DNA of 20,000 nucleotides from an uncultured virus (IMG/VR IMGVR_UViG_3300046096_000178). Taxonomy: Duplodnaviria > Heunggongvirae > Uroviricota > Caudoviricetes. The notes below the pieces were generated by a model that saw only the letters and a program-made list of their open reading frames with translations, was not told the origin of the DNA and ran no database searches. Shown here in pieces: positions 1,223 to 18,863 of the stretch (its first letter is position 1; each line of letters opens with the position of its first letter). A program made the position numbers and the translations under genes. The stretch lies in IMG/VR virus record IMGVR_UViG_3300046096_000178; one strand, given 5' to 3'.

Positions 1223-3520
1223 ATGGACTACGAATCAGGCGCACTGGAAAAGCCGGAAGATGTTGGAGTAGACCAAGCGGGCATAGTTCGCCGTTGGCTA
1301 TTGGAACTAAAGCTCGCTGATAAAAGAGAATCTCAATGGCGCGAAAAGGGTGACAAGGTTCTTAAACGCTATCGGCAAAAAGAGATTAAGAAACACAGCT
1401 TTAACATTCTTTGGTCGAATACCGAGACCATGCGCCCGGCAATCTATAACAGCTTGCCAAAACCTGATGTACGCCGTCGGTTCAAAGATGAAGACCCAGT
1501 GGGAAAGGCTGTGAGCGAAGTTATTGGCCGCTGCCTTGAATATGGCATGGACACGACCCAGTTTGATTCTCAGATTCGGTTCTGCGTGATTGACATGCTA
1601 TTGCCTGGCCGTGGATTGGCTCGCGTGCGCTATGTTCCAACCATCAACAAAGTGCAGGAAGAAACCGACACCGAGCCAACAGAAGCGTTAGATGGAGACT
1701 TTGAGGAGCTTGCTTGGGAGCAGGCACCTATTGAACACGTTCAATGGAAAGACTTCCGCATATCCGCAGGTGAATCATGGGAGTCTGTGACATGGGAAGC
1801 GTTTCGCCACCGATTGACACGCGACGAACTTGAGGAACAGTTCGGAGAGATTGGCGCATCCGTTCCATTGGACAAGACAGATGACCCTGATGTTGAAGGC
1901 GAAAAGGACATGGACGTTGCTGAAGCGTTCAAGACTGCCGAGGTATGGGAGATATGGGACAAGGAAGAGCGCGAAGTAATCTTTATCGCCCCTGCCTATA
2001 AAGATAGCCCACTAAAGACGTTACCAGACCCGCTCGGACTAACTGGCTTCTATCCTAACCCTCGCCCTTTATACGCTTGCGAAGATAGTGGCACACTGAT
2101 ACCTACGCCGCTGTTCGAATACTACCGAGAACAGGCAGACGAACTCGACACTGTAACCCGTCGCATTAACATCTTGGTCAAGGGATTGAAGATGCGCGGC
2201 ATCTATGACTCCACGCTGTCCGAGTTGTCTGAATTGATGCGCGGCGAGGATAACGACCTGATTCCGGCTTCAAACGTCACCGCATTGTTAGAGCGTGGCG
2301 GATTGGAAAAGGCCATCTGGTTCATGCCTATCGAGCAGGCTGCCAAAGTATTGCAGATATTGCAAGTGCAGCGAGAATCATCTAAGCAGGTGATCTACGA
2401 GATTACGGGTATCAGTGACATTTTGCGCGGCTCAACCAATGCCAACGAAACACTTGGCGCTCAACAGATTAAGGCCCAATGGGGTAGCGCACGATTGAAG
2501 CGCATGCAGACCGACTGTGCTTTGTTCATTCGTGACTTGCTTCGCTTGCAATCCGAGATCATTGGAGAGCGCTTTCAGCCTGAGACATTGGCCAGTATGA
2601 CGGGGCTTAAATTCCCCACTGGTGAGGAAAAGCAGCAAGCCATGATGCAATGGCAAATGCAGTCACAGCAAGCCCAGATGCAAGGCCAACAGCCTCCACC
2701 GCAGCCCGACTTACCACCAAGCTGGGATGAGATCATCCAGGTGATGCGTGATGATAAGTTGCGCACATTCAAGGTTGACGTTGAGACTGATTCGACTGTT
2801 GCCGCATCGGTTGAGTCTGACATGAAGGGATTGAGCGACACAATGAACGCTCTAAACCAAGTCATTCAAGGTTTCATGCCAGCGGTGCAAATGGGTGCTT
2901 TGCCTGTTGACGCATTGAAAGAGATGCTATTGACCGTGACACGCCGGGCAAAGATGGGCAATGCCGTGGAAGATGCTATCGACAAGATTAAGCAGCCCCC
3001 ACCGCCTCCACAAGAGCAGCAACCGCAGGACAACAGCTTGCAAGTCAAGCAAATGGAACTGCAACACAGCCAGCAAGTGGAGCAGGGCAAGTCTCAATTG
3101 GAGCAGGCCAAGCTACAACAGTCTGCCCAGATCGAGCAATTCAAGGGTGAGCAGGCTTTGCAGTTGGAGCAGGTTAAACAGCAATTCGCGCTACAGTTGG
3201 AGCAATTGAAGCAAGACGCAGAAACGCAACGCGCACAAATGAAGGCCCAGATTGATAGCGAAACCAAGTTGCAGATTGCCGGAATGAATGCTCAAGCGGC
3301 TGAGAAACCCGCCGTAAATATAGACACCGGGGCACTTACTGAGCAAGTAAAATCTCACTCTGAAAAGAGCGACGCAAGCATGATGCAAGCGATGCAGAAT
3401 TTTGGGCAGATTGCACAGGCTCTGGTAAAAACAATCGAACAAATGAACAAGCCTAAAAAACGTATGCTGCAACGTGGGCCGGATGGCAAGGCAGTTGGCA
3501 TGATTGAGGTATCAGAATAA
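1223..3520 (+). CDS. Portal protein (P22-like, 765 aa) with long Gln-rich C-terminal helical extension
   Basis: Follows terL. Portal-like segments FNILWSNTETMRPAIY, IYEITGISDILRG, ETLGAQQIK and FKVDVETDST. The last ~170 aa are Q/E/L-rich and heptad-like. Confidence 0.92.
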   Translation: MDYESGALEKPEDVGVDQAGIVRRWLLELKLADKRESQWREKGDKVLKRYRQKEIKKHSFNILWSNTETMRPAIYNSLPKPDVRRRFKDEDPVGKAVSEVIGRCLEYGMDTTQFDSQIRFCVIDMLLPGRGLARVRYVPTINKVQEETDTEPTEALDGDFEELAWEQAPIEHVQWKDFRISAGESWESVTWEAFRHRLTRDELEEQFGEIGASVPLDKTDDPDVEGEKDMDVAEAFKTAEVWEIWDKEEREVIFIAPAYKDSPLKTLPDPLGLTGFYPNPRPLYACEDSGTLIPTPLFEYYREQADELDTVTRRINILVKGLKMRGIYDSTLSELSELMRGEDNDLIPASNVTALLERGGLEKAIWFMPIEQAAKVLQILQVQRESSKQVIYEITGISDILRGSTNANETLGAQQIKAQWGSARLKRMQTDCALFIRDLLRLQSEIIGERFQPETLASMTGLKFPTGEEKQQAMMQWQMQSQQAQMQGQQPPPQPDLPPSWDEIIQVMRDDKLRTFKVDVETDSTVAASVESDMKGLSDTMNALNQVIQGFMPAVQMGALPVDALKEMLLTVTRRAKMGNAVEDAIDKIKQPPPPPQEQQPQDNSLQVKQMELQHSQQVEQGKSQLEQAKLQQSAQIEQFKGEQALQLEQVKQQFALQLEQLKQDAETQRAQMKAQIDSETKLQIAGMNAQAAEKPAVNIDTGALTEQVKSHSEKSDASMMQAMQNFGQIAQALVKTIEQMNKPKKRMLQRGPDGKAVGMIEVSE

Positions 3521-3681
3521 TGGCTAATCTTGGCGGAAACCTTGGCGAATTACGCTTAGTGGTTGAAATTGTTAGAAAAGAAACGGGCAAGACTGATACC
3601 GTCGAGCTAGTTGGTTTTATTGACGAAGATAAATTGAAAGAGGCATTGAATGGCACTGACACACAGCACAGCGGCACGTAA
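3520..3681 (+). CDS. Hypothetical protein (53 aa), not in the ORF track
   Basis: TAATG overlap with the portal stop, GAGG upstream. Translates MANLGGNLGELRLVVEIVRKETGKTDTVELVGFIDEDKLKEALNGTDTQHSGT. Fills the gap and overlaps the next gene by 32 nt. Confidence 0.75.
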   Translation: MANLGGNLGELRLVVEIVRKETGKTDTVELVGFIDEDKLKEALNGTDTQHSGT

Positions 3682-4039
3682 CGCTGCTACGGACGCAGTA
3701 ACGGCGCTTATAGGAGCTTCTGGCAGGCTTCGTTTCCGATTGTCTGGCACGGTTGCAGCGCCTGGCACTTCGGTGGCTAACTTGGCCCTGAGTGCTACGG
3801 CATTCGGCGCGTCTGCTACTGGAACCGCTACGGCTAACGCGATTACAAGCGACACCAACGCCGCAGGCAATGCTTCCCCAGTGGCTACGGCTACGCTAGA
3901 AACATCCGGCGGAACTGTGGTCATTCATTGCGCAGTAGCTGCAAGTGGCTCTGATATCAACATGACCAACGGATTGACAGTGACTGCGGGCGATACTGTG
4001 TCGTGTTCTAGTCTGACATACACTGCACTTTCAGCCTAA
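3650..4039 (+). CDS. Putative virion structural protein (129 aa, Ala/Thr/Ser/Gly-rich beta protein)
   Basis: GAGG Shine-Dalgarno. Composition and pattern (ARNAATDAV ... GSDINMTNGLTVTAGDTVSCSSLTYT) are typical of small phage fibre-base or structural proteins. Confidence 0.7.
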   Translation: MALTHSTAARNAATDAVTALIGASGRLRFRLSGTVAAPGTSVANLALSATAFGASATGTATANAITSDTNAAGNASPVATATLETSGGTVVIHCAVAASGSDINMTNGLTVTAGDTVSCSSLTYTALSA

Positions 4040-4042
4040 ACA

Positions 4043-4423
4043 ATGGCAACCTACGCAGACCGCGTTCTAGAAACCTCGACTAGCACAGGTACGGGCAATA
4101 TAACGCTCGCTGGTGCTGTGACGGGTTTCCGTGCATTTAGCCCTGCTATGTCGCTCAATGTAATGACTGATTACGTCATAGAGGCGGTTGATGCATCCAA
4201 CGTGCCAACAGGCGAATGGGAGACGGGGCGTGGATACTTGTCGGCATCTAACACGCTTGTCAGGTCAAGGCCAAACGCAGGCAGTGCAGCTACTCCCGTG
4301 TCATTCAGTGCTGGGACTAAGCGGGTATTTATCTCTCCCAACACAGCGTCAGCATTTACACGCGACAACAATCTGAGCATTGGCAGGCAAGTTGCCATCT
4401 CTTTAAAGCAATATCAAGGGTAA
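4043..4423 (+). CDS. Putative fibre-associated structural protein (126 aa) with DRVxET...GTG N-terminal motif
   Basis: N-terminus ADRVLETSTSTGTGNITLAGAVTGFRAF plus WETGRG and FSAGTKRVF. I recall this motif set from uncharacterised phage fibre-associated proteins (not searched). Confidence 0.7.
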   Translation: MATYADRVLETSTSTGTGNITLAGAVTGFRAFSPAMSLNVMTDYVIEAVDASNVPTGEWETGRGYLSASNTLVRSRPNAGSAATPVSFSAGTKRVFISPNTASAFTRDNNLSIGRQVAISLKQYQG

Positions 4424-4426
4424 AAC

Positions 4427-4876
4427 ATGAGCACGACTACTGGAAACGTACAGCCAATCTGGATAGCAAAAGGCGACCTGTCCAAGGATGGCACGACTGG
4501 TATGAACCAAGCCATTACACTCGCCGCTGCTGACTACACTGGCATTAGTGCAAATACTTCGCTGGTGTTTACCGCAGGTGCGGACGGCGCACGTATCGAG
4601 CGTTTGAAGTTCACACCTGCGGGTACGAACGTGCAAACCGTTGCGCGAATCTTTATCAATAACGGCGCAGTCAACACGACTGCCGCCAACAATACTTTTA
4701 TTGGTGAGATCACCTTACCCGCAACGACTGCAAGCGCAACGGCTGCACTTGTTTCGCCTGAGTTTGTTATGTCAGGCGGTGCGCTGGCTATCCCGGCTGG
4801 GTTCAAAATTTACGTCGGCCTAGGCACGGCTGTGGCTGCTGGCTGGGTGATCACTCCAATCGCTGGGCAATACTAA
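4427..4876 (+). CDS. Putative virion structural beta-sandwich protein (149 aa)
   Basis: Tightly packed in the operon (3-nt gap, TAATG overlap with the next gene). Beta-rich, T/A/G-rich, ends in GQY. Confidence 0.65.
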   Translation: MSTTTGNVQPIWIAKGDLSKDGTTGMNQAITLAAADYTGISANTSLVFTAGADGARIERLKFTPAGTNVQTVARIFINNGAVNTTAANNTFIGEITLPATTASATAALVSPEFVMSGGALAIPAGFKIYVGLGTAVAAGWVITPIAGQY

Positions 4877-5760
4877 TGTTCGGCACTCCCCAAGGCGCGG
4901 AAGTAACTGACTTTTTCGGCAACAGCATAACTGCGGGTGGGGCGTGGCATACATGGACTAAGCGCAAGACCGCATCAATGGTGCATATCTTGTTGCTGGG
5001 TGCTGGTGGCAATGGTGGCACTGGTGCGGTGGGTGCAAATAGTACAGCGGCTGGCGGCGGTGGTGGTGGCTCTGGTGGCCAGACCTCGGTGCTTATCCCT
5101 GCTTACATGCTACCGGATGTGTTATACATCAGCTTGGCCTATGGCGGCGCTGCGGTAGCGTCTTACGTTTCGTTTGACCGTACAACTACGGCTCAAAGCG
5201 TACTTGCCATTGCTAACGCTGGTGGAAACGGCGGCAATGCTACTGGCGCTACGGCTGGCGCGGCTGGTGCTGCTGGTGCAATCGCAACCATTGCAACTAT
5301 GCCTCGGGCGGGTGGTGGCTTTTACAACTTACTTGCAGGTCAAGCTGGCATTATCGGAGGCACCACGGTTGCCGCCGCTGCCTTGACGGCTCCCACTACT
5401 GGATTGATCGTAGCTGGAGGTACTGGCGGCGGTGGTCTTCCTGCTGCGGCTGCTGTGGGTACGGCTGGTGGGGCGTTTACAGCGACTGGCGTGTGGTTAA
5501 CCCGTGCGGCTGCTACATCGGGTGGAGCATCAAGCGCGGGAACCAATGGCGGTTCTGGTGTTGAGTATTACAACAACATCTTCCTGCCAACGCCGGGATG
5601 TGGCGGGTCTTCTGGTGGCGGAACTACTGGTGCATCCGGTGGCGGTGGTCATGGTTCCGTCGGGTGTGGTGGTGGTGGTTCCGGCGGTAGAATCACTGGT
5701 CAATTAGATGGCAGAATAGGCGTTGGCGGTACTGCTAATTGCATCATCACACAATGGTAA
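4876..5760 (+). CDS. Glycine-rich protein (294 aa), putative polyglycine-II adhesin or fibre tip
   Basis: WTK...VHILLLGAGGNGG...GGGGGGSGG start, many GGxGG runs, and a C-terminal GVGG-x-x-x-CIITQW strand: the layout of phage glycine-rich domains. Confidence 0.8.
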   Translation: MFGTPQGAEVTDFFGNSITAGGAWHTWTKRKTASMVHILLLGAGGNGGTGAVGANSTAAGGGGGGSGGQTSVLIPAYMLPDVLYISLAYGGAAVASYVSFDRTTTAQSVLAIANAGGNGGNATGATAGAAGAAGAIATIATMPRAGGGFYNLLAGQAGIIGGTTVAAAALTAPTTGLIVAGGTGGGGLPAAAAVGTAGGAFTATGVWLTRAAATSGGASSAGTNGGSGVEYYNNIFLPTPGCGGSSGGGTTGASGGGGHGSVGCGGGGSGGRITGQLDGRIGVGGTANCIITQW

Positions 5761-5763
5761 ACC

Positions 5764-6219
5764 ATGCAGTATTTCAACATCCTTTATGAAGACGGCACAT
5801 TACTTCTACAAGAGGTCTTTGCTGGTCAAGTAATCCGCTATTGCGACGAACTTGGCAATACGGTCACACCTCCATTGCTTGGCTCGCAAAACATGGGAAC
5901 GGTAATTCCAGCGTTTCCAATTCCACCAGACCCAATCGTTATCCCTGAAGTAGTTGCACCGGTGGAAGTTGCGCCCGAAGTGGTAGCGACTCCAATTAAT
6001 TACACCGACATTCTTGGCGCACCGCTGCGCACTATGACGTATGACGACAAAGGCCAATTAGTACGCATAGACTACCCCGGCTCAAGCACTTATCAGATTC
6101 TTGAATATGACGCTGGTCGTTTGCGCAAGATCACCGAAGTGTCTCCTATTGGAATATGTTTCGAGCGCCATTACTACTACGACAACTGGGGTCGGTGGGT
6201 GGAGGAAACCCAACTATGA
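5764..6219 (+). CDS. Hypothetical protein (151 aa) with Pro/Val-rich linker and C-terminal YD/RHS-like repeats
   Basis: TYDDKGQLVRIDYP, EYDAGRLRKITE and YYDNWGRWVEE match the YD-repeat pattern YDxxG[RQ]L. Confidence 0.7.
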   Translation: MQYFNILYEDGTLLLQEVFAGQVIRYCDELGNTVTPPLLGSQNMGTVIPAFPIPPDPIVIPEVVAPVEVAPEVVATPINYTDILGAPLRTMTYDDKGQLVRIDYPGSSTYQILEYDAGRLRKITEVSPIGICFERHYYYDNWGRWVEETQL

Positions 6220-6392
6220 ACGAATTAGAGGAAAAGTTGCAATGCGTCATGATTGACGCAGGCGCTCAGATTGGCGAGTTACTGCGCTGCATTATTGAAG
6301 CGGAAGTAAACGCGCAACTCTCAAAAATTCAACAATTGCAAGCTGTGCTTAACGGTACGGACTGCTGTGGTGACGTAACCCCGACCACGTAA
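6216..6392 (+). CDS. Small Cys-containing helical protein (58 aa); start re-assigned from 6156 to 6216
   Basis: ATGA overlap with the upstream stop and GGAGG at 6201-6205. MNELEEKLQCVMIDAGAQIGELLRCIIEAEVNAQLSKIQQLQAVLNGTDCCGDVTPTT. Confidence 0.75.
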   Translation: MNELEEKLQCVMIDAGAQIGELLRCIIEAEVNAQLSKIQQLQAVLNGTDCCGDVTPTT

Positions 6393-6406
6393 GCGTCGGT
6401 TTTTTT
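6381..6406 (+). terminator. Weak intrinsic terminator or attenuator
   Basis: CCGAC-N9-GTCGG stem followed by a T7 run, overlapping the stop codon of the 58-aa gene. Confidence 0.45.
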
Positions 6407-6418
6407 AAGGGCTTTTTA

Positions 6419-7300
6419 ATGTCATCTCATGATTTTCACGACCCATTAGTGGGTACTTATAACGACAACTTGACCTCTTTGGTCACTTGCTTGGCTACTA
6501 CCTTCGGTGACGAAGTTGGCTTGGCGGTAAACGAAAAGATCAATGCTGTATTGCAACTCGAAGGTGTTGATATTGCTGCTGTCACGGCACAGATCGCTAC
6601 CCTCAATGCTTTGATGCAGTCTGACAATGCATCTGATGCTGCTACTGCACAGGCTATCGTCAGCCAACTGACGGCACTGTCAAGCCGCATCACTTCGCTT
6701 GAGGCATCTACCGCTGTAGCTGACCTGACCGCTGCTGTTGCTGCTATTCAAGACGCTATCACCGCTGAAGCCGCTGCCCGTGTTGCTGGCGATGCTGCCA
6801 ACGCTGCTGCTATTGCATCCGTAGCTGCCAGCGTTACAACTCTGCAAACAACCATTGCAACACTGGAGGCATCCGTTGCCGCTGGTGGTGGTGGTTCTTG
6901 CGATTGCACTGCAATCAATACCGCTATCGCTGCCGTTGTTAGCGATGTAACTGCACTCAAGTCTAGCGATGCTGCTCAAGCTACCGCCATTGCTGACCTA
7001 ACATCACGCATCCAAACGCTGGAAGTCAAGGCTGGTGACATCACTGCTGCATCCGCCGCCGCCGCTGCTGCATCTTTGGCCGCTGCCGCCGCATCCGTCA
7101 AAGCTGACGCTGCTTCTGTCAAGGCCGACGCTGCTACAGCCGCTGCTGCGGCTAACGCTGCCGCCATCCGTGAGCTGGACGACCGCAACGAAGAACAGCA
7201 TGGTCGCTTCATCCATAAGAACGAGATCAAAGACATTGATTGCGCCGCTATCGGTAGCGCATTCCGTGCTGCGATGCGTTCTAAAATGAACCTGAGCTAA
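6419..7300 (+). CDS. Ala-rich coiled-coil protein (293 aa), putative fibre shaft
   Basis: AAGG Shine-Dalgarno. Heptad pattern (LTALSSRITSLEA, VTTLQTTIATLEA, IADLTSRIQTLEV), GGGGSCDC hinge, heavy GCT/GCC codon use. Confidence 0.8.
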   Translation: MSSHDFHDPLVGTYNDNLTSLVTCLATTFGDEVGLAVNEKINAVLQLEGVDIAAVTAQIATLNALMQSDNASDAATAQAIVSQLTALSSRITSLEASTAVADLTAAVAAIQDAITAEAAARVAGDAANAAAIASVAASVTTLQTTIATLEASVAAGGGGSCDCTAINTAIAAVVSDVTALKSSDAAQATAIADLTSRIQTLEVKAGDITAASAAAAAASLAAAAASVKADAASVKADAATAAAAANAAAIRELDDRNEEQHGRFIHKNEIKDIDCAAIGSAFRAAMRSKMNLS

Positions 7301-7306
7301 TCAATT

Positions 7307-7332
7307 GGGGCGGTTTAATCGCCGCCCCTTTT
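7307..7332 (+). terminator. Rho-independent terminator
   Basis: GGGGCGG-TTTAATCG-CCGCCCC (perfect 7-bp GC stem) followed by TTTT, directly after the 293-aa gene. Confidence 0.75.
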
Positions 7333-7335
7333 ACT

Positions 7336-7518
7336 ATGAACATCATCACTACCAAAGTGCAGCGCGAAAAGAGACTGGAAACTTGCAAAGAGTGTCCGGA
7401 AAAAGTTGTGCGCTTTGGTAGTGACGTATGTGGACTGTGTAACTGCCCATTGGCGGGTAAGTCAATCCTAATAGCCGCAAAATGTCCCGCTGGTAGGTGG
7501 GAGTTACTGCCTTGCTAG
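7336..7518 (+). CDS. Small Cys6 protein (60 aa), DUF6171-like putative metal-binding protein
   Basis: RLETCKECP ... CGLCNC ... KCPAGRW matches the RLxxCxxC..CxxCxC..CPxxxW pattern recalled for DUF6171. Confidence 0.75.
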   Translation: MNIITTKVQREKRLETCKECPEKVVRFGSDVCGLCNCPLAGKSILIAAKCPAGRWELLPC

Positions 7519-8495
7519 GTATAAATACACTAGGCTCGCAGCCTATATCGGCACTTAGCTCGGGAGCTTCTACCCCTCCAACTACGGTTACGCACGATAC
7601 AAGCGGGGCGATCGTTGGCGTTATTGGGTCTGTATCTGGCTCTGCGGCGCGGCTTCATGCTTTCAGCACGTCTGGTGCTTTATCTGGACAGATTGGTGCT
7701 GTATCAGGCACTGCAACACGCATACACGCATTCTCTGCCACTGGTGCATTGATTGGCCCTGGCGGTTCTTTGGCTGGAACTGCTAACAGAATCCGCTCGA
7801 TGGCAACGTCTGGCGTATTGGCGGGGCAGTCTTCATTGCTGGCAGGCTCTGCGGCTCGCTCTGGTGCAGTTTTGAGCCATGATACAACAGGTGCTATCGT
7901 TGGTCCTGGCGCATCAATCTCTGGTGCATCGAATCGGACTAGAGCAATATCGTCTTCTGGCGCGTTAATTGGCCAAAGCGCATTGCTTGCTGGTTCTGCT
8001 ACTCGATCCGGTGCAGTCGTAAGTCATGCTACTAGCGGCGCTCTTGTTGGTCAAATAGGCTCAATTGCAGGCGTTGCAGTCCACCAATCACTGCACACAT
8101 ATAGCGGCGCTATCGTTGGACAATTGGGTTCAATATCCGCGATTGCCACTCGCACGTCGTCGGTCTTAACTCCTACCAAATTGGGAGGCGATGATGCGTT
8201 TCACCACAATAAGCATACTGGCTGGAATAAAAAGACGTGGCAGAAAAAGCAGCTTCGCGAAGATGCTATTGAATCAACCATCGAGGCCACTTATCAACAA
8301 TTGATGGGGTTTGCGCCAGCGCCTGCCGTGGTGGCAGAGATTAAGCGCGAAGCAAAGGCCGAGATACCTCGAATCGATTACACGCAAGAGCGCAAGTTCA
8401 TTGATTGGTTATCGGCTGAAATACAATCTATCCGCAATATTGAGCGAGATATTGAAGACGACGACGAAGAAGCAATGATGCTTTTAATGGGGTAA
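7512..8495 (+). CDS. Repeat-containing putative virion fibre or anchor protein (~327 aa); TTG start at 7512 preferred over GTG at 7497
   Basis: GGGAG lies 8 nt upstream of TTG 7512. Eight 23-26-aa Gly/Ser/Ala repeats, then a charged helical C-terminus ending EDDDEEAMMLLMG. Confidence 0.75.
   Translation: MLGINTLGSQPISALSSGASTPPTTVTHDTSGAIVGVIGSVSGSAARLHAFSTSGALSGQIGAVSGTATRIHAFSATGALIGPGGSLAGTANRIRSMATSGVLAGQSSLLAGSAARSGAVLSHDTTGAIVGPGASISGASNRTRAISSSGALIGQSALLAGSATRSGAVVSHATSGALVGQIGSIAGVAVHQSLHTYSGAIVGQLGSISAIATRTSSVLTPTKLGGDDAFHHNKHTGWNKKTWQKKQLREDAIESTIEATYQQLMGFAPAPAVVAEIKREAKAEIPRIDYTQERKFIDWLSAEIQSIRNIERDIEDDDEEAMMLLMG
7593..8162 (+). repeat. Eight tandem, degenerate 23/26-aa protein repeats (consensus xxTSGAL/IxGxxGSL/IxGxAxR)
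   Basis: HDTSGAIVGVIGSVSGSAARLHA / FSTSGALSGQIGAVSGTATRIHA / FSATGALIGPGGSLAGTANRIRS / MATSGVLAGQSSLLAGSAARSGAVLS / HDTTGAIVGPGASISGASNRTRA / ISSSGALIGQSALLAGSATRSGAVVS / HATSGALVGQIGSIAGVAVHQSL / HTYSGAIVGQLGSISAIATRTSS. Confidence 0.9.
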
Positions 8496-8497
8496 AT

Positions 8498-8896
8498 ATG
8501 AACTATTCAAAGATACAAGAGCAATTGGGATTTTCAGAATCTGATAAAGCTACATGGATAGCAAACAACGGCAAGTATTACCAAGACCCAGAGCAGGGAT
8601 GGATTGACAAACTAATAATGCACGCTTACCCAACGCGCACAGCTTCCGTTTATGTAATGCCGTCTTATCAATCGCCTATTAGTGGAAAATGGATTGACAC
8701 ACCATCGCAGCGCCGTGACGATATGGCCCGTAATAACTCCCGCCCTTGGGAGGGTATGGAATCAGAGCGCAAAGCTGCAAGCGAACGAGTTAAAATCGAG
8801 GAAAAGCAAAAAGATACTGCCATTGAAAACGCAGTAGTTGGCGCTTATCATTCACTCAGCGATGATAAGAAATCAATATTATCTAACGCTTTGTGA
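8498..8896 (+). CDS. Conserved phage hypothetical protein preceding the scaffold (132 aa)
   Basis: Motif YQSPISGKWIDTPSQRRDDMARNNSRPWEG resembles proteins I recall between portal and scaffold in this podovirus type. Confidence 0.75.
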   Translation: MNYSKIQEQLGFSESDKATWIANNGKYYQDPEQGWIDKLIMHAYPTRTASVYVMPSYQSPISGKWIDTPSQRRDDMARNNSRPWEGMESERKAASERVKIEEKQKDTAIENAVVGAYHSLSDDKKSILSNAL

Positions 8897-12451: not shown

Positions 12452-13162
12452 ATGGCGACCTGCCTTTCGATAGTTCAAGCAATAACTGGTAGATTGTCGC
12501 TGACAGTGCCTACGCAAGCCGTAGGAAATACTGATCAACAAATAACTACTATTCTCGCGCTATGTAACGAAGAAGGGCAGGAGCTTGCAGCACGCCACGA
12601 ATGGACTGGCCTGCAAACTGAGGCAACATTCACCACCTTGGCCGCTGAGAATCAGGGCGCAATGGAGACAATAGCCCCCGGTCTTGGTTACATCATCAAT
12701 GACACCATCTGGAACCGCACACTGCGTCGCCCTGTGTATGGTCCGAAGTCTGCCCAAGGCTGGCAACAAAACAAAGCCTTTGCAATCAATGGCCCTTGGT
12801 CAAACTTCCGTGTAAAGGGTGGCAGTCTTTACATGTACCCAACCCCTGTTGCAGGGCAAACATGCGTATTTGAATATACGACACGCAACTGGTGCAGTGA
12901 TTCCACTGGTGTAACTGGCTATGAAGAATGGTCCGCTGATACTGATATTCCGCGACTTGAATGGAATCTATTGGTATTGGGGACAATCTGGCGCTGGAAG
13001 AAGCTAAAGGGCTTTGAGTACGCCGAGGACTTCAACACCTACGAGCGGCGATGTATGGATGCGATGGGCAAGGATGGCTCTAAAGATTGGCTGAGTCTGT
13101 CCAACACTAAGTATGATATTTTCCCTGGCATCGTCGTTCCGTCAGGTAGCTGGAATATCTAA
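12452..13162 (+). CDS. Head-tail adaptor / tail tubular protein A-like (236 aa)
   Basis: GGAG Shine-Dalgarno. N-terminal helices (CLSIVQAI ... LCNEEGQELAARHEW), LYMYPTP strand, C-terminal LLVLGTIWRWK helix. Position before the nozzle gene. Confidence 0.8.
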   Translation: MATCLSIVQAITGRLSLTVPTQAVGNTDQQITTILALCNEEGQELAARHEWTGLQTEATFTTLAAENQGAMETIAPGLGYIINDTIWNRTLRRPVYGPKSAQGWQQNKAFAINGPWSNFRVKGGSLYMYPTPVAGQTCVFEYTTRNWCSDSTGVTGYEEWSADTDIPRLEWNLLVLGTIWRWKKLKGFEYAEDFNTYERRCMDAMGKDGSKDWLSLSNTKYDIFPGIVVPSGSWNI

Positions 13163-14718
13163 TGCGACAAGCTGCAAGAACAAAAGGGCGAAGAATAGCA
13201 GTATCAAACTCTGTTTCTTTGCCGTCTCCCGTCGGTGGGTGGAATGCTCGCGACACAATGACAAATATGAAGCCCGAAGATGCGGTGGTAATGGAAAATT
13301 GGTTTCCGCTGACGACAGAATGCCAACTGCGCAAGGGTTACACCAAAGAAACAACCGGAATAGTAGGTCAAGTAGAGAGTTTAATGGTCTATTCTGCTGG
13401 CACTAGCGAAAAGCTATTTGCAGTGGCTGGTGGTAGCTTCTACGATGCTTCAAACACTGGTGCAGTGGGAGCAGCGGTTGCAACTGGTAAGACTAACTCT
13501 CGCTGGCAATATACCAACATTGCAACGGCTGGCGGTAATTTTCTATACACTGCCAATGGTGTTGATAAACCAATGCTGTATGACGGCACTACATGGACGC
13601 TAATTGATGGCGCTTCTACCCCGTCAATCACAGGCGTGACAACGACCACACTTACAAGCCCGATAGTGTTTAAGAATCGCGCTTGGTTTATTGGTAAGAA
13701 CACCTTAAAAACATGGTATTTGCCAGTTTCATCCGTGGGCGGCGCTGCCAATCCGATTGATGTTTCATCGGTGGCTCAAAAGGGCGGATATATCGTCGCA
13801 CACTCTACTTGGACGATTGACGCAGGCACAGGCGTGGATGATTACTACGTCATCGTTACCAGTAATGGTGAGGTTATCGTGTATCAAGGGACTGACCCGT
13901 CAAGCGCTACAACATGGGCGCTTAAGGGCGTATGGGCATTAGGCGCACCGGTTGGAGAGCGTTGTTTATATAAATTCTCAGGCGACCTTTTTTATATCTC
14001 TCAGGACGGATTAGTCCCTATGGGCGGGGCATTGCAATCGTCGCGTGTAAACCCTAGGGTAGCTATAACAGACAAAATTCAATTTGCAATATCAAGCGCA
14101 GTTTCTAGTTATTCTGGGAACTTCGGTTGGGCGCTGGTTTATTATGCAAAAGAGAATATGCTGATTCTCAATGTGCCTACTGCTGAAGGTAATTTGCAAG
14201 AGCAATATGCAATGAACACCATAAGTAGGTCATGGGCTAAATTCACCGGATGGAATGCGAACTGTTGGGACTTATTTAACGACGAACCATACTTCGGCGG
14301 GGATGGTTTTGTAGGCCGCGCATGGAACGGGTTCGTTGATGACGTTTCAAATATCACCGGAACGTGCATACAGGCATTTTCAACCTATGGCAACCCAGGC
14401 AATCTAAAACGCTGGACGATGACTAGGCCAATATTGAGAGCGAGCGGAAGTCCAGTAATCAGCGGTGCAATGAATGTCGACTTTGATATGACGTTCAATA
14501 CTTCGCCGCTTTCATTCTCTCCTGTTGTTTATGGGGCATGGGATTCGTCTATATGGGACAGTGGTGTATTCGGCGCTGACTTCAACATCTACCAAGCATG
14601 GCAGGGTGTATCTGGTGTTGGGTATTACGGCGCACCTCAAATGAAAATCGCATCTAGTGGAATTGATGTTCGATGGGTATCTACGGACGTGGTTTATGAG
14701 TCAGGGTCTATTTTGTGA
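13162..14718 (+). CDS. Tail nozzle / packaged-DNA stabilisation protein (P22 gp10 / T7 gp12-like, 518 aa)
   Basis: TAATG coupling to the adaptor. PSPVGGWNARD...DAVVMENWFP N-terminus and W/G/T-rich beta-propeller-like composition. Confidence 0.85.
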   Translation: MRQAARTKGRRIAVSNSVSLPSPVGGWNARDTMTNMKPEDAVVMENWFPLTTECQLRKGYTKETTGIVGQVESLMVYSAGTSEKLFAVAGGSFYDASNTGAVGAAVATGKTNSRWQYTNIATAGGNFLYTANGVDKPMLYDGTTWTLIDGASTPSITGVTTTTLTSPIVFKNRAWFIGKNTLKTWYLPVSSVGGAANPIDVSSVAQKGGYIVAHSTWTIDAGTGVDDYYVIVTSNGEVIVYQGTDPSSATTWALKGVWALGAPVGERCLYKFSGDLFYISQDGLVPMGGALQSSRVNPRVAITDKIQFAISSAVSSYSGNFGWALVYYAKENMLILNVPTAEGNLQEQYAMNTISRSWAKFTGWNANCWDLFNDEPYFGGDGFVGRAWNGFVDDVSNITGTCIQAFSTYGNPGNLKRWTMTRPILRASGSPVISGAMNVDFDMTFNTSPLSFSPVVYGAWDSSIWDSGVFGADFNIYQAWQGVSGVGYYGAPQMKIASSGIDVRWVSTDVVYESGSIL

Positions 14719-15044
14719 TTGACAAATGGCGCTATCTGTTGGAGCCGCTAATAAATGAGTCTATGGCCCCTATTCCTTGGGAACAAGTAAAGCAGCAAGA
14801 CTATATTTTGTTTGAGTGCGGAGAATCTGTGTTAGTGGCAAATAGCAGTTTTATGTTTGGTAAAAAATCCATACAGATATGGCTAGCTGCTGGCATAATG
14901 GAGGAAATAGACGTTCTGGCTCAACAGGCAGAAGACTATGGCCGAAATAACGGATTTGAGCTTATTGCCTACTGCGGTAGAAAAGGCTGGATTAAATCAC
15001 ACGGCTATAAAGAGGTTGCAACTGTTGGAGTAAAGAATCTATGA
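14715..15044 (+). CDS. GNAT-like virion assembly protein (position of T7 gp13 / P22 gp14; 109 aa)
   Basis: GTGA overlap upstream and ATGA overlap downstream. IWLAAG...AEDYGRNNGFELI...GRKGW...GYK pattern. Lies between nozzle and ejection genes. Confidence 0.7.
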   Translation: MIDKWRYLLEPLINESMAPIPWEQVKQQDYILFECGESVLVANSSFMFGKKSIQIWLAAGIMEEIDVLAQQAEDYGRNNGFELIAYCGRKGWIKSHGYKEVATVGVKNL

Positions 15045-15859
15045 ACTCGATAAAAGACATATTTGGCATTCAAAGCGCACCCGCTGCACCAGACTACACT
15101 GGAGCTGCTCAAGCCACAGCGTCGGGGAATCTAGCGGCGGCACAACAGGCAACCCGCGCTAATCGAGTTAATCAATATACGCCTTACGGTTCACTGACAT
15201 ACCAAGAAAACCCGAATGGGACTTGGGACCAGAACATGAACCTGTCATCCACAGGGCAGCAACTTCTAAACGCAGACAACCAATCTGCACTAGGTTTAGC
15301 AGGACTGCAAAGCAACGCAATGCAAGGCGTAGCAGGTCAGCAGGGCCGTGGCTGGGATGACGCATCGCTGACACCCAGCGCAATCAACCCCGGACAAACG
15401 GCTCAAGATGCGATTATGTCGCGCCTAAATCCTCAGTTTGACCGTCGCCAGTCTGCACTTGAAACACAACTTGCAAACCAAGGCATCGCTCGCGGTACAG
15501 AGGCGTGGACTAACGGCATGACAGACCTAAACAACGCTCGCAACGATGCAACGTCTCAAGCTGCATTACAAGGTATCGGACTAGGCCAACAAGCCCGTCA
15601 GCAAGGCATTCAAGAGCAGCAATATTTCAACTCCCGCGACTTAAATAACCTCAACGCGCTGCGCACCGGTTCACAGGTGACAAACCCAACATTCAGCAAC
15701 TACAACCAACAGGCTACGACTGGAGGGGCTGACATGATGGGAGCTACTCAGGCAGGATATAACGCGCAACTAGGGCAGACCAACGCTAACAACGCATTCG
15801 GAAGCTCTGCCATGCAAGGCTTGTTTGGTCTTGGCGGCGCTTACATGGGGATGAAATAA
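15041..15859 (+). CDS. Internal virion / DNA ejection (pilot) protein 1 (272 aa)
   Basis: APAAPDY...ANRVNQYTPYGSLTY and LETQLANQGIARGTEAW motifs. Q/N/G/A-rich with a hydrophobic Gly-rich end. First gene after the GNAT-like gene. Confidence 0.75.
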   Translation: MNSIKDIFGIQSAPAAPDYTGAAQATASGNLAAAQQATRANRVNQYTPYGSLTYQENPNGTWDQNMNLSSTGQQLLNADNQSALGLAGLQSNAMQGVAGQQGRGWDDASLTPSAINPGQTAQDAIMSRLNPQFDRRQSALETQLANQGIARGTEAWTNGMTDLNNARNDATSQAALQGIGLGQQARQQGIQEQQYFNSRDLNNLNALRTGSQVTNPTFSNYNQQATTGGADMMGATQAGYNAQLGQTNANNAFGSSAMQGLFGLGGAYMGMK

Positions 15860-15860
15860 C

Positions 15861-17078
15861 ATGGCAGCCCCGATCATGGCCCCCGGTGCTTACGATGCAG
15901 AGTCGGAAGCTATCCGCCGTCGCCTAGCATTTGCAGAGGCGCTTAAATCCCCAACTGCGCAAGGTGGGCAGATGGTGAGTGGACATTACGTCCCCATGAA
16001 TCCATTAGCGGGACTGGCTGACTTGCTTCGCGCAAAGTGGGGTAAGGAAGAAAGTGAAGGCGCGACCAAAGACCAACAGGCACTAGCTGACCGAATCCGC
16101 AACAAACAGAGCGAAGAATGGGCGGGCGTATCGGGTATGTTGACCGGGAAACCCGCGCAGACTATGCAACCCCTTACGCCGAACGATGACGAAGGCAATG
16201 TAAACCCTGCTATCAACGTAGGCGCACAGGCCCCAGATATTGCAGCGGCATATGCACGCGCCTTGCAAGCAGAAGATCCAACATTGCGGCAGTTTGGTAT
16301 GCAGGGTATGGCGCAAATGCCACAACTAGAAGCGCAGAAACAAGAGCGCATCGACGCACGCACATTCCGTCAACAAGAGTCAGAGGCATCCCGCACAGCA
16401 CGCGCAGAGGAATTGCAGCAGCGGCTACAAGATGCACGCGCAAGCCAGACAGAGCGATTAGCGGCTCAAAAGGAATTGCGCGAGATGCAAATTCAGGCGC
16501 AGCGTGATAACGCTCGATTGGTTTCGTCTTTGCGTCAACCCGCACAAGCTCAGATCATCCAAACTGAAAATGGGCCAATGCAACTTATCGGCGGTAAAGC
16601 CGTGCCGATTACCGGGCCTGATGGTAGGCCAGTGCAAGGCACAAAAACAGGCGCTGCGGCTGACGTTACAAAGCAGAAAGATGCACAAGATGCTCTTACC
16701 CTGTTGGAACAAGCTGCGCCATTGGTTCGCGGTGCAACGGGTAGCACTATCGGCGCGGGATTGGATTGGATGGCTGGCGCTGTAGGTGCGGCTCCAAAGG
16801 GCGCACAAAACATCGCACAGCTAAAAGCAATATCCGGCATGTTGGTGGCGAAAATGCCGAAAATGTCCGGCCCTCAGTCTGACAAAGACGTGCAACTCTA
16901 TCGAGAGATGGCTGGAAATATTGGCGACCCGAGCGTACCGACAAAGCTGAAAGAGGAAGCAATGAAGACTATTGCAGAGATTCAGTCAAGATATGCAGGG
17001 ATGCAACCCCCTGAACTCTCATTCGCTGGAAAAGCCTCCCCGCAAGGTGGGTGGTCTATTGCACCTGTAGGCCAATAA
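15861..17078 (+). CDS. Internal virion / DNA ejection protein 2 (405 aa)
   Basis: GQMVSGHYVP N-terminal motif, central coiled coil, GPQSDKD motif. Synteny. Confidence 0.72.
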   Translation: MAAPIMAPGAYDAESEAIRRRLAFAEALKSPTAQGGQMVSGHYVPMNPLAGLADLLRAKWGKEESEGATKDQQALADRIRNKQSEEWAGVSGMLTGKPAQTMQPLTPNDDEGNVNPAINVGAQAPDIAAAYARALQAEDPTLRQFGMQGMAQMPQLEAQKQERIDARTFRQQESEASRTARAEELQQRLQDARASQTERLAAQKELREMQIQAQRDNARLVSSLRQPAQAQIIQTENGPMQLIGGKAVPITGPDGRPVQGTKTGAAADVTKQKDAQDALTLLEQAAPLVRGATGSTIGAGLDWMAGAVGAAPKGAQNIAQLKAISGMLVAKMPKMSGPQSDKDVQLYREMAGNIGDPSVPTKLKEEAMKTIAEIQSRYAGMQPPELSFAGKASPQGGWSIAPVGQ

Positions 17079-18863
17079 ATGCCAAAGTACCGCATCACAT
17101 CCCCTGACGGTAAGACTTTCGAGATTACCGCTCCCGAGGGCGCTACGCAAGAGCAGGTGCTGTCCTACGCTCAAAGCCAGTGGAAGGATCAACAAGCAGA
17201 AAAAGCCCCAGACCCTACCGAGGGCATGAGTGGTTTTGACAAGTTCGCAGCGGGTGCGGGTAAGGCTGTGTACGACATTGGGCGCGGTGCAGGTCAAATG
17301 CTTGGTTTGGTTTCAGATCAAGACGTTGCAGAATCTCGAAAGCGTGACGAAGCCCTAATGAATACGGGCGCGGGCATGGCTGGCAACATTGCCGGGAATG
17401 TAATCACTGCACTACCTACGGCGGCAATTCCAGGCGTTAATACGGTTCTGGGTGGCGCTGCTATCGGTGCTGGTATGGCAGCATTGCAACCCACGCTGAA
17501 AGACGAAAGCAGACTGCAAAACATGGCCCTAGGTGGCGTGGCTGGTGGTGTGTTGCCTGCGATTGTCGGTGGTGTGAAAACCGCCAAGGCAGCACTCTAC
17601 GACCCGTTAGCAGGGCAAGAGCGCATTATTGGCGGTGCATTGAAGCGCAGTGCAGGCGATAAAGCGGCAGAGATTGCAAAGGCGCTTAGAAGCCAAGGCG
17701 CGGCAACTCCCGGCGTGAGATTGTCAGCGGGGCAAGTTGGTACAAGCGAGGGACTATCAGCCCTTGAAGACGCGATTACATCCGCTTTGCCTTCGGGTGA
17801 ATTGGCTCGTATGGGGCAGACAAACCGCACAGCACTTGCTGATGCTTTGCGGGGTATCGCTGGCAGCCCTGAAGCGTTGGGCGCTGCAAAAACCGCACGT
17901 GGTGATACCGCTGAAAAACTCTACGACCTTGCTCGGACTCAAGGCGTTGATGTGGCATCTTTGGCCCCAGAGGCACAAGCCAATATTGCAGCATTCCAAC
18001 AGCGCATACCCGATGACATTTTGAACCGGGCAAAAGAGCTGGCAAAAATCAGCGGCGTGAATATGGATAACGAATCCGCTATCCAAGGCATGCATTGGGT
18101 GAAAAAATCCATTGATAGCAAGATTGGCCAGGCGGTAACTTCCGGCGACAAAGAGATTGCGCGCGCCTATCAAGGATTGCAGGATGATTTGATTGCAGGC
18201 ATGGGTGAAATAAGCCCCGCATACGACACGGCCCGAAAGACATTCCAACAAATGAGCGGCCCAGTCAATCAAATGGAAGTCGGGAAAGCCCTGGCTAATA
18301 AGCTGATACCCGCAACCGCTGGCGATGTTCCCGCAAGTTTGAACTATTCCAGCTTGGCAACTGCCATGCGAAACCCTGACCAAATAGCCCAACGTGCTAC
18401 GGGTTTCTCTGGTGCAAAGATGGGTTCTATTTTGTCACCTGACCAAATGGGAACCGTGCAAGGCGTTACGTCAGACGCAAGCCGTATTGCAGAAGCTTTG
18501 AAGCGTGGTAGCGGGAATAATTCCGCTACGCATCGCAGATTTACTCAGGGAGATATGCTGGCACAGCACTTCGCACAAGAGGCCCCATTCACATCCAAGA
18601 TATTGGAATTGGCCAGTAACTTACCCGGCGTTGGGTTTGTTGGAAAAGGCGTATCTCTTGCGGGTTCAGTCGTAGGCGATAAGGTCAAAGCGCAAATGCT
18701 AGGCCAGCTTGACGATATGCTGGCAAACAACCCGCAACAGGTCGCAAAGTTAATCGAGAAAGAACTCGCTCGAGTAGAACCATCGCAAAGACAGAAGATT
18801 ATTCGCGCACTGCCTCAGTCCGTGGTTTTATCTCTGCCTGCGGCTTACGTTTCGCAAAAGTAG
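17079..18863 (+). CDS. Internal virion / DNA ejection protein 3 (594 aa)
   Basis: MPKYRITSPDGKTFEITAPEGATQEQV N-terminus, Gly/Ala-rich hydrophobic segments, helical body. Last gene before the tail fibre region. Confidence 0.75.
   Translation: MPKYRITSPDGKTFEITAPEGATQEQVLSYAQSQWKDQQAEKAPDPTEGMSGFDKFAAGAGKAVYDIGRGAGQMLGLVSDQDVAESRKRDEALMNTGAGMAGNIAGNVITALPTAAIPGVNTVLGGAAIGAGMAALQPTLKDESRLQNMALGGVAGGVLPAIVGGVKTAKAALYDPLAGQERIIGGALKRSAGDKAAEIAKALRSQGAATPGVRLSAGQVGTSEGLSALEDAITSALPSGELARMGQTNRTALADALRGIAGSPEALGAAKTARGDTAEKLYDLARTQGVDVASLAPEAQANIAAFQQRIPDDILNRAKELAKISGVNMDNESAIQGMHWVKKSIDSKIGQAVTSGDKEIARAYQGLQDDLIAGMGEISPAYDTARKTFQQMSGPVNQMEVGKALANKLIPATAGDVPASLNYSSLATAMRNPDQIAQRATGFSGAKMGSILSPDQMGTVQGVTSDASRIAEALKRGSGNNSATHRRFTQGDMLAQHFAQEAPFTSKILELASNLPGVGFVGKGVSLAGSVVGDKVKAQMLGQLDDMLANNPQQVAKLIEKELARVEPSQRQKIIRALPQSVVLSLPAAYVSQK

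Follow-up and report, generated by a model that had tools for sequence, protein, structure and literature searches.

The DNA analysed here, referred to as the window, is a stretch of 20,000 nucleotides from an uncultured virus of the Caudoviricetes (IMG/VR record IMGVR_UViG_3300046096_000178), and it corresponds to the final 20 kb of a 71.6-kb contig in which two phage genomes lie end to end. The window phage is, by gene order, a P22-like podovirus. Between its portal gene (1223-3520, + strand; PHROG portal match, E 4.5e-174) and a gene preceding that of the scaffold, ten co-oriented open reading frames are present (g1 to g10, 3520-8495, all on the + strand), as the original prediction had stated, and they are considered here as the probable source of a chain-like fibre. 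For all ten, uninterrupted homologues of similar length exist in other contigs, which argues that they are genes and not chance reading frames. Besides, the public viral contigs include identical and 98% identical copies of the window phage, so the ten-gene block is not an assembly artefact. The composition announced for the block was mostly found: a polyglycine protein (g5, 27% Gly), two Cys-bearing proteins (g7 and g8, four Cys each), a YD-repeat protein (g6, which matches the RHS/YD repeat PF05593 at E 3e-6, above the cut-off) and an eight-repeat protein (g10, with repeats spaced 23, 23, 23, 26, 23, 26 and 23); the protein said to contain six Cys, g9, has seven. The absence of recognisable enzymes was also borne out, with no enzyme family among the ten genes in Pfam, PHROGs or NCBIfam. 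The last of these matched none of the ten, and the yield of the family libraries was limited to the RHS repeat in g6, phrog_13558 in g9 and a weak fibre match in g5.

The second gene, g2 (3650..4039, 129 residues), would encode the bead subunit of a chain-like fibre, and an N-terminal helix followed by an incomplete beta-sandwich is predicted for its product. Its homologues form 3703 clusters, the best 120 of them showing 87-94% identity. The AlphaFold model of g2 (predicted local distance difference test score, pLDDT, 72) was compared with 48,161 chains, and the six best matches were all phage neck or tail proteins: the Sf14 whisker (9c39_K; Z 10.8, root-mean-square deviation 2.4, 107 residues aligned), the garland of phage 7-7-1 (9rkv_A; Z 10.8, deviation 2.9, 124 aligned), a phi812 baseplate protein (Z 7.0), an HFTV1 tail protein (Z 6.8), GP4 fibre I (8jou_a; Z 6.7) and a Bxb1 tail-tip protein (Z 5.2), whereas unrelated chains score Z 4.2 or less. 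Foldseek gave template-modelling (TM) scores of 0.64 to 9rkv_A, 0.56-0.60 to the Bas63 and Sf14 whiskers and 0.56 to GP4 8jou_a. At the sequence level, the g2 profile matches 9rkv_A at E 0.023 and gp105 of 7-7-1 at 1e-11 in a nine-protein set. The Pfam family Gp80 (PF23140) appears for g2 in the Atlas as a lead (0.87), and two cassettes (L028 and L058; L numbers designate the loci compared) hold PF23140 members in the g2 slot, matching at 1e-21. Judging by its model, g2 is a predicted bead-fold subunit outside Pfam Gp80 yet with the fold of that family. Profile-profile comparison found no connection between the g2 type and the other types found in the first slot, whose kinship to g2 is suggested by slot and size and, for the Gp80 type, also by the shared family fold; a PDB sequence search with a Gp80-type protein gave no match. 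The preceding gene, g1 (3520..3681, 53 residues), was found upstream of g2-type genes in 62 of 69 cases and of other bead-type genes in none of 20, and its product seems to be a small partner of the g2-type bead, perhaps a cap or chaperone. In the cultured Sphingopyxis phage VSN-002, g1, g2 (85%) and a rope protein are found together between the adaptor and nozzle genes.

The last gene of the block, g10 (7497 or 7512 to 8495), most likely starts at the TTG at 7512, because homologues begin there. An N-terminal motif (7512..7592) is followed by eight repeats of 23 or 26 residues (7593..8162), in which small and hydrophobic residues alternate and whose period is strictly 23/26, and by a C-terminal anchor region (8178..8495) ending in a helix that is first acidic and then hydrophobic. 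Among the distinct g2-type genes with 3.5 kb downstream (n=40), 39 are followed by repeats of the g10 type, the miss being a 34% homologue, versus 1 of 11 other bead-type genes, at a locus that also holds a g2-type gene; 42 of the counted ropes had supplied the repeat profile, and the controls were absent from it. The number of repeats ranges from 2 to 18 in the ropes compared (n=60), with a median of 8. A PDB sequence search with the repeat profile returned chance matches only. The rope protein of VSN-002 carries a Gly-rich domain N-terminal to the same repeats and has a different C-terminus; from this natural fusion, the tip belongs on the N-terminal side of the repeats. As far as can be judged from sequence, g10 is likely to be the rope of a chain-like fibre, and it is highly probable that the cassette encodes a beaded-fibre chassis.

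Another element linked to the cassette is located in the portal gene itself. The C-terminal extension of the portal (3353..3520, + strand), predicted to form a helix and a basic beta-hairpin, contains invariant Pro, Arg and Gly residues and occurs only in cassette-bearing relatives, whereas cassette-free portals end about 50 residues earlier. Relatives with the whole interval were scored with profiles, leaving out the loci cut by contig ends: 18 of the 41 distinct relatives have both the portal tail and the rope anchor, 22 have neither (a class joined by two loci from metagenome-assembled genomes, MAGs), one (L062) has the tail only and none the anchor only. In a quick tree built from 45 portal cores this state changes 12 times, at least nine of the changes being forced by strong branches, which implies repeated gain or loss. 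The tail has been found on three portal families (phrog_12082, phrog_1216 and phrog_156), and the tailed portals of the last two, which were not used for the profile, precede g2 cassettes in which most ropes finish with a helix of the same kind. Behind three tail-less portals (L109, L148, L154) the g2 cassettes have ropes with a different end, and ropes located elsewhere in genomes or behind tail-less portals show other end motifs. Concerning charge, 45 rows were listed and six were dropped as non-portals; seven of the remaining 39 combine an acidic portal segment with a net-positive anchor, and the anchor is net-negative in the other 32. In two cassettes reduced by deletion (L029 and MW202573.1) the anchor has been kept in frame on the bead N-terminus, and in the second phage of the contig the portal end and the end of the last gene look similar by eye, with no profile score. 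A complex prediction for the portal tail and the rope C-terminus scored 0.02, which counts neither way. The PDB sequence search with the portal-tail profile gave chance matches only, and tblastn with the tail matched one uncultured record and no cultured phage. No published description of a portal C-terminal tail tied to a fibre cassette was found in the part of the literature that was searched, mainly outside subscription journals. The portal tail appears to be the best candidate partner of the C-terminal helix of the rope, and the chances of a direct contact between the two are about even.

The original prediction regarded the ten genes as one module. The neighbourhood survey found the ten-gene unit only in near-copies of the window phage, and a conserved ten-gene module was rejected, since the block divides into g1-g2 together with the repeats of g10, a g3-g9 part and the C-terminus of g10. 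The interval between the portal and pre-scaffold genes varies from nothing to 5 kb among 79 portal relatives, and it is a hot spot carrying separable modules. The portal of L006 is 92% identical to that of the window and divergence begins at the portal stop codon; in L006 and L015 the DNA identity with the window ends at 3524-3525, so the tail stays with the portal. At the other border, L011 has the portal, g1 and g2 in common with the window and its DNA identity resumes at 8184, while in L010 it resumes at 8220. In DNA comparisons with L085, L087 and L178 only about 4040-7490 is common. Related to this, L085, L086, L087 and L090 contain g3-g7 or g3-g9 in the same order, with about 60-85% protein identity, beside a different small gene and a different first-slot protein, and in the two contigs that reach far enough (L085 and L087) the repeats differ from the g10 type of the window; in L087 the g3-g9-type block sits after the capsid gene. 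In a long-tailed phage (L088/L179/L182), g5-g9 or g8-g9 are followed by a third repeat type, and in the second phage of the contig homologues of g7, g8 and g9 (65, 53 and 51% identity) lie in the same order between portal and protease. The g3-g9 block, with its jelly roll, polyglycine and coiled-coil proteins, thus accompanies other bead and rope types at other genome positions. Where bead and repeats have been swapped (L085, L087, L088/L179), the motif at the N-terminus of g10 remains with this block, which suggests that the motif is the tip-binding end of the rope. Cassettes of the g1-g2-rope kind have also been observed between terminase and a large following gene (L143, L144 and L147); their ropes end in Arg-rich tails, apparently a further anchor class.

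The products of g3-g9 are likely to form the fibre tip. The first of them, g3 (4043..4423, 126 residues), is a beta domain and probably the joint between the rope N-terminus and the tip; its homologues are the N-terminal domain of long fibre-like proteins (296-705 residues), and its structural neighbours in the Atlas include Gly_rich_2 and Peptidase_S74 proteins. It is followed by g4 (4427..4876, 149 residues), a single jelly roll resembling cement proteins, carbohydrate-binding modules or discoidins, whose model (pLDDT 80) has a best Z of 8.8 with many ties at 7-8, so that it points to no specific family. The polyglycine protein g5 (4876..5760, 294 residues), likely a polyproline-II bundle adhesin, has a weak PHROG tail-fibre match and none with Gly_rich_2, two of its homologues matching that family below the cut-off (E 0.001-0.009); the Gly_rich_2 fold serves in phage adhesins (PMC13243192). 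PDB sequence searches with the g3, g4 and g5 profiles gave chance matches only. The product of g6 (5764..6219, 151 residues) consists of a small N-terminal domain, a Pro-rich linker and the RHS/YD repeat domain. The sub-module g7-g8-g9 comprises a helical protein with four Cys (g7, 6216..6392, 58 residues), an Ala-rich, coiled-coil-like protein with four Cys and no family match (g8, 6419..7300, 293 residues) and a Cys-rich protein, possibly metal-binding or disulfide-linked (g9, 7336..7518, 60 residues), which matches phrog_13558, of unknown function, at E 8e-9. A terminator-like hairpin (7307..7332, + strand; eight pairs, seven of them G-C, and a T run), identified by consensus match only, lies after g8 and may lower the expression of g9 and the rope; a second short hairpin (6379-6407), located where g7 ends and followed by a T run, was seen by eye and not in the hairpin scan.

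It is possible, though rather doubtful, that two appendages are encoded: a beaded fibre of g2 and g10 whose tip consists of g3-g6, and an independent disulfide-linked coiled-coil whisker made of g7-g8-g9. The two parts do occur separately: the second phage of the contig has g7-g8-g9 and lacks g3-g6, L006, L025 and L053 have g3-g5 and lack g7-g9, and the hairpin after g8 also speaks for this reading. Nevertheless, in all the loci where they were seen (only about ten distinct ones), g7-g9 are part of a cassette of this kind and lie upstream of its rope or anchor gene. This alternative is compatible with the best explanation and alters the tip only.

Chain-like fibres were first solved in 2023 and a handful of structures is available. 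The proteins of these fibres are dimers threaded on an extended rope in Bas63 (PMC12609058) and in A1002, as well as in GP4 and VP1, cited with it (PMC13730344), and the beads of A511 and Milano are likewise dimers on a rope (PMC10811340); the bead chain of A-1(L), made of trimers, follows a different design (PMC10966104). The original prediction knew of no characterised system of such composition; GP4 fibre I, the Bas63/Sf14 whiskers and the A1002 fibres are in fact comparable (PMC13730344, PMC12609058). Fibre I of the Ralstonia podophage GP4 consists of gp80 dimers (8JOU; PF23140) on a separately encoded rope (PMC13730344, PMC12609058), and it shares with the window the bead fold (Z 6.7, TM 0.56), the separate rope gene and the podovirus context. 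However, the GP4 genes follow the neck genes, the rope locks into an Ig-like collar and there are five dimers, whereas in the window the genes come after the portal, the repeats number eight, the tip block comprises seven genes and the anchor tracks the portal tail. In GP4, gp79 (L170:12948-13925; 325 residues), encoded after gp80, is a low-complexity protein with a short N-terminal motif and small-residue repeats, and its C-terminal strand motif resembles that of ropes preceding gp77-like genes (L110); from these features it is likely to be the GP4 rope.

The whiskers of the Felixounavirus phages Bas63 (gp5; 9MT4) and Sf14 (9C39) are the best structural match, with an N-terminal helix and a sandwich completed by the rope (PMC12609058). 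They differ in having two dimers per rope and no tip, in that the N-terminal arm of a 12-fold collar serves as the rope, and in belonging to myoviruses. The 7-7-1 garland (9RKV; identified as such in PMC12796354) is the closest to g2 in sequence (22% identity in the structural alignment, Z 10.8). The garlands of the Agrobacterium phages 7-7-1 and Milano (gp125/gp127 in Milano) and the beads-on-a-string connectors T4 gp8 and A511 gp105 are located at the baseplate (PMC10811340, PMC12796354), and the string of Milano is unidentified according to its paper (PMC10811340), whereas the window has an evident type-matched rope gene. A group of 7-7-1 proteins, gp105-gp109 (L173:4334-8740), was also noted: the g2 profile recognises gp105, a bead-like domain (weak) forms the end of gp107, and gp108 and gp109 contain repeat regions and basic C-termini. 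By sequence features they are candidates for the source of the garland string or of the capsid fibre, which is present once per pentamer and whose proteins are unidentified (PMC12796354). The 7-7-1 portal has no tail of the kind described above, so the portal-tail link does not explain its vertex fibres. As for the Pseudomonas podophage A1002, its dimers (gp40/gp41) augment their sheets with the extended rope of gp39, the nozzle-rope protein, and 11 dimers sit on a rope domain that is about 230-270 residues long (PMC13730344); the resulting spacing, about 20-25 residues per dimer, is near the 23/26-residue repeats of the window. The A1002 rope differs in being fused to nozzle parts, in carrying two bead proteins and in running down the tail.

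The explanation preferred here, and considered moderately probable, is that a three-part, repeatedly swapped cassette builds an accessory chain-like fibre, with its rope docked on the tail of the portal. The g2 dimers would be strung on the eight repeats of g10, and the rope would complete the bead beta-sandwich, as in the published structures of the same fold. With one dimer per repeat there would be about eight dimers, and the number of repeats would set the length of the fibre; g1 would be a cap or a chaperone. A host-contacting tip at the rope N-terminus would be built from the products of g3-g9, presumably as adhesins, and the C-terminal helix of the rope would dock on the C-terminal tail of the portal. 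This contact would have to be made during prohead assembly, because the C-terminus of P22-like portals lies inside the head, and either the rope or the tail would have to cross the shell, most simply at the portal vertex. There are twelve portal tails and eleven free vertices; that the tails of the portal dodecamer capture ropes in prohead assembly and so thread fibres through the shell, at the portal vertex or one per vertex, is improbable. From the tip domains and from published proposals for such fibres, the fibre is inferred to be an auxiliary adsorption device; in the literature consulted, receptor binding by chain-like fibres was not shown. The original idea of a second, multi-subunit appendage is retained on the strength of the bead fold of g2 and the co-occurring rope-like repeat protein, and that of a single ten-gene system is abandoned. 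As for the capsid or neck attachment proposed originally, the sequence evidence points to the C-terminal tail of the portal.

Several points weigh against this explanation. With a pLDDT of 72 the g2 model is of moderate quality, none of the Foldseek matches reached E 0.001, and g2 has no match with PF23140 at E 0.05. No window protein matched GP4 gp77, the Ig-like collar, in blastp, most window folds being unpredicted. Loci L025 and L042 contain a bead gene and a 154-residue anchor protein without clear repeats, and position and composition are the sole basis for the roles of g6-g9. Concerning the anchor, 13 of the 18 positive loci had themselves supplied the tail and anchor profiles, L062 has tail and cassette and no anchor that scored, and L122 and L142 have a portal tail and a rope with another end. 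The seven charge-reversed loci are probably one lineage (L131 and L169 are sisters), and the anchors of L141, L164 and L167 are barely acidic. Besides, portal tail and cassette adjoin, so co-inheritance alone could link them, and the intracapsid location expected for the portal C-terminus is hard to square with an outer fibre, portal C-termini extending into the head as in the A1002 barrel (PMC13730344).

The last two points are also the strength of a serious rival, according to which the same beaded fibre is anchored outside, on the neck adaptor or the coat protein, and the portal tail is merely linked, being the conserved left edge of the cassette, a ligand of internal proteins or a means of coupling translation. 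In every chain-like fibre that has been solved, the attachment site is the collar, the adaptor, the nozzle or the baseplate. On the other hand, the three invariant residues of the tail are kept across three portal families, the exchange points after the portal stop codon leave the tail with the portal (L006, L015), tail-less portals precede g2 cassettes with other rope ends, and the charge is reversed in both partners. Such outside anchoring is judged unlikely, if still a reading to be reckoned with. Far less probable is that the proteins are an internal cargo which binds the portal barrel and is ejected into the host. Ejection proteins gather round the portal barrels of P22-like podoviruses, and a linked portal tail would be expected inside; however, the bead fold is otherwise found only in outer structures, the phage has its own ejection-protein genes (15041-18863), the VSN-002 chassis sits among neck genes, and folded dimers would hardly pass through the portal channel. 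Non-virion accessory genes (morons), such as host-surface modifiers, would agree with the high mosaicism and the RHS-like repeat of g6, but the block lacks a promoter-like site, its overlapping genes belong to a late operon, and it combines a virion bead fold with no enzyme families, so this possibility is the most remote.

With respect to the surroundings of the cassette, the gene order of the window is terminase, portal (phrog_12082), scaffold, capsid (phrog_9953), adaptor (phrog_6013; weak match with PF24175), a nozzle-like gene, ejection-type genes and tail fibre. The pre-scaffold gene (8498-8896, 132 residues) is conserved with or without the cassette, and the pre-scaffold proteins of distant relatives have zinc-ribbon-like N-termini. 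The gene at 13162-14718 bears the PHROG label 'amidase' (phrog_5107), while its position and the annotation of a relative point to a nozzle protein like P22 gp10. The separate tail fibre mentioned in the original prediction is present from 19009, with weak PHROG matches; a relocated ordinary trimeric tail fibre was rejected as the identity of the block, since only g5 has such a match, a weak one, and a separate fibre gene exists. Between terminase and portal there is a beta-rich gene of 82 residues (971-1219), in an interval that is variable too, from 0 to 2.7 kb among relatives. The 472-residue protein found in L026 (6570-7988), L046 and L054, between a fibre-like gene and the anchor gene of the cassette, has an enzyme-like (nucleotide-binding) N-terminal part. 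The second phage (contig 1-34500, outside the window) is long-tailed and carries, between portal and protease, a 9.6-kb cassette of its own that contains a bead-like gene, the g7-g9 homologues and large fibre-like genes. Its tail fibre and that of the window phage share a 98% identical stretch (residues 285-330), which suggests a shared host or recent exchange between the two phages. As clues to the host there are only distant, cassette-free relatives in two MAGs, one of Burkholderiales and one of Dongiaceae.

The class of fibre described here is already known, and the link with the portal tail appears to be the new element. Judging by the 3703 clusters of this bead type alone, the chain-like design is very common in uncultured phages, and it follows a genetic code in which the bead type matches the repeat type, the number of repeats varies from 2 to 18, tips are freely exchanged and the rope C-terminus varies with genome position. 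The pairing of bead and rope offers a route to naming ropes still unidentified, such as that of the Milano garland. The proposed connection of an outer fibre with the C-terminus of the portal is unexpected and testable. If true, docking on the portal tail would be a new way to anchor a chain-like fibre, a shell-threading portal would act as a positioner of outer appendages common to podoviruses and siphoviruses of natural waters, and a plug-in grammar of tip, bead/rope and anchor would set fibre length and host contact independently.

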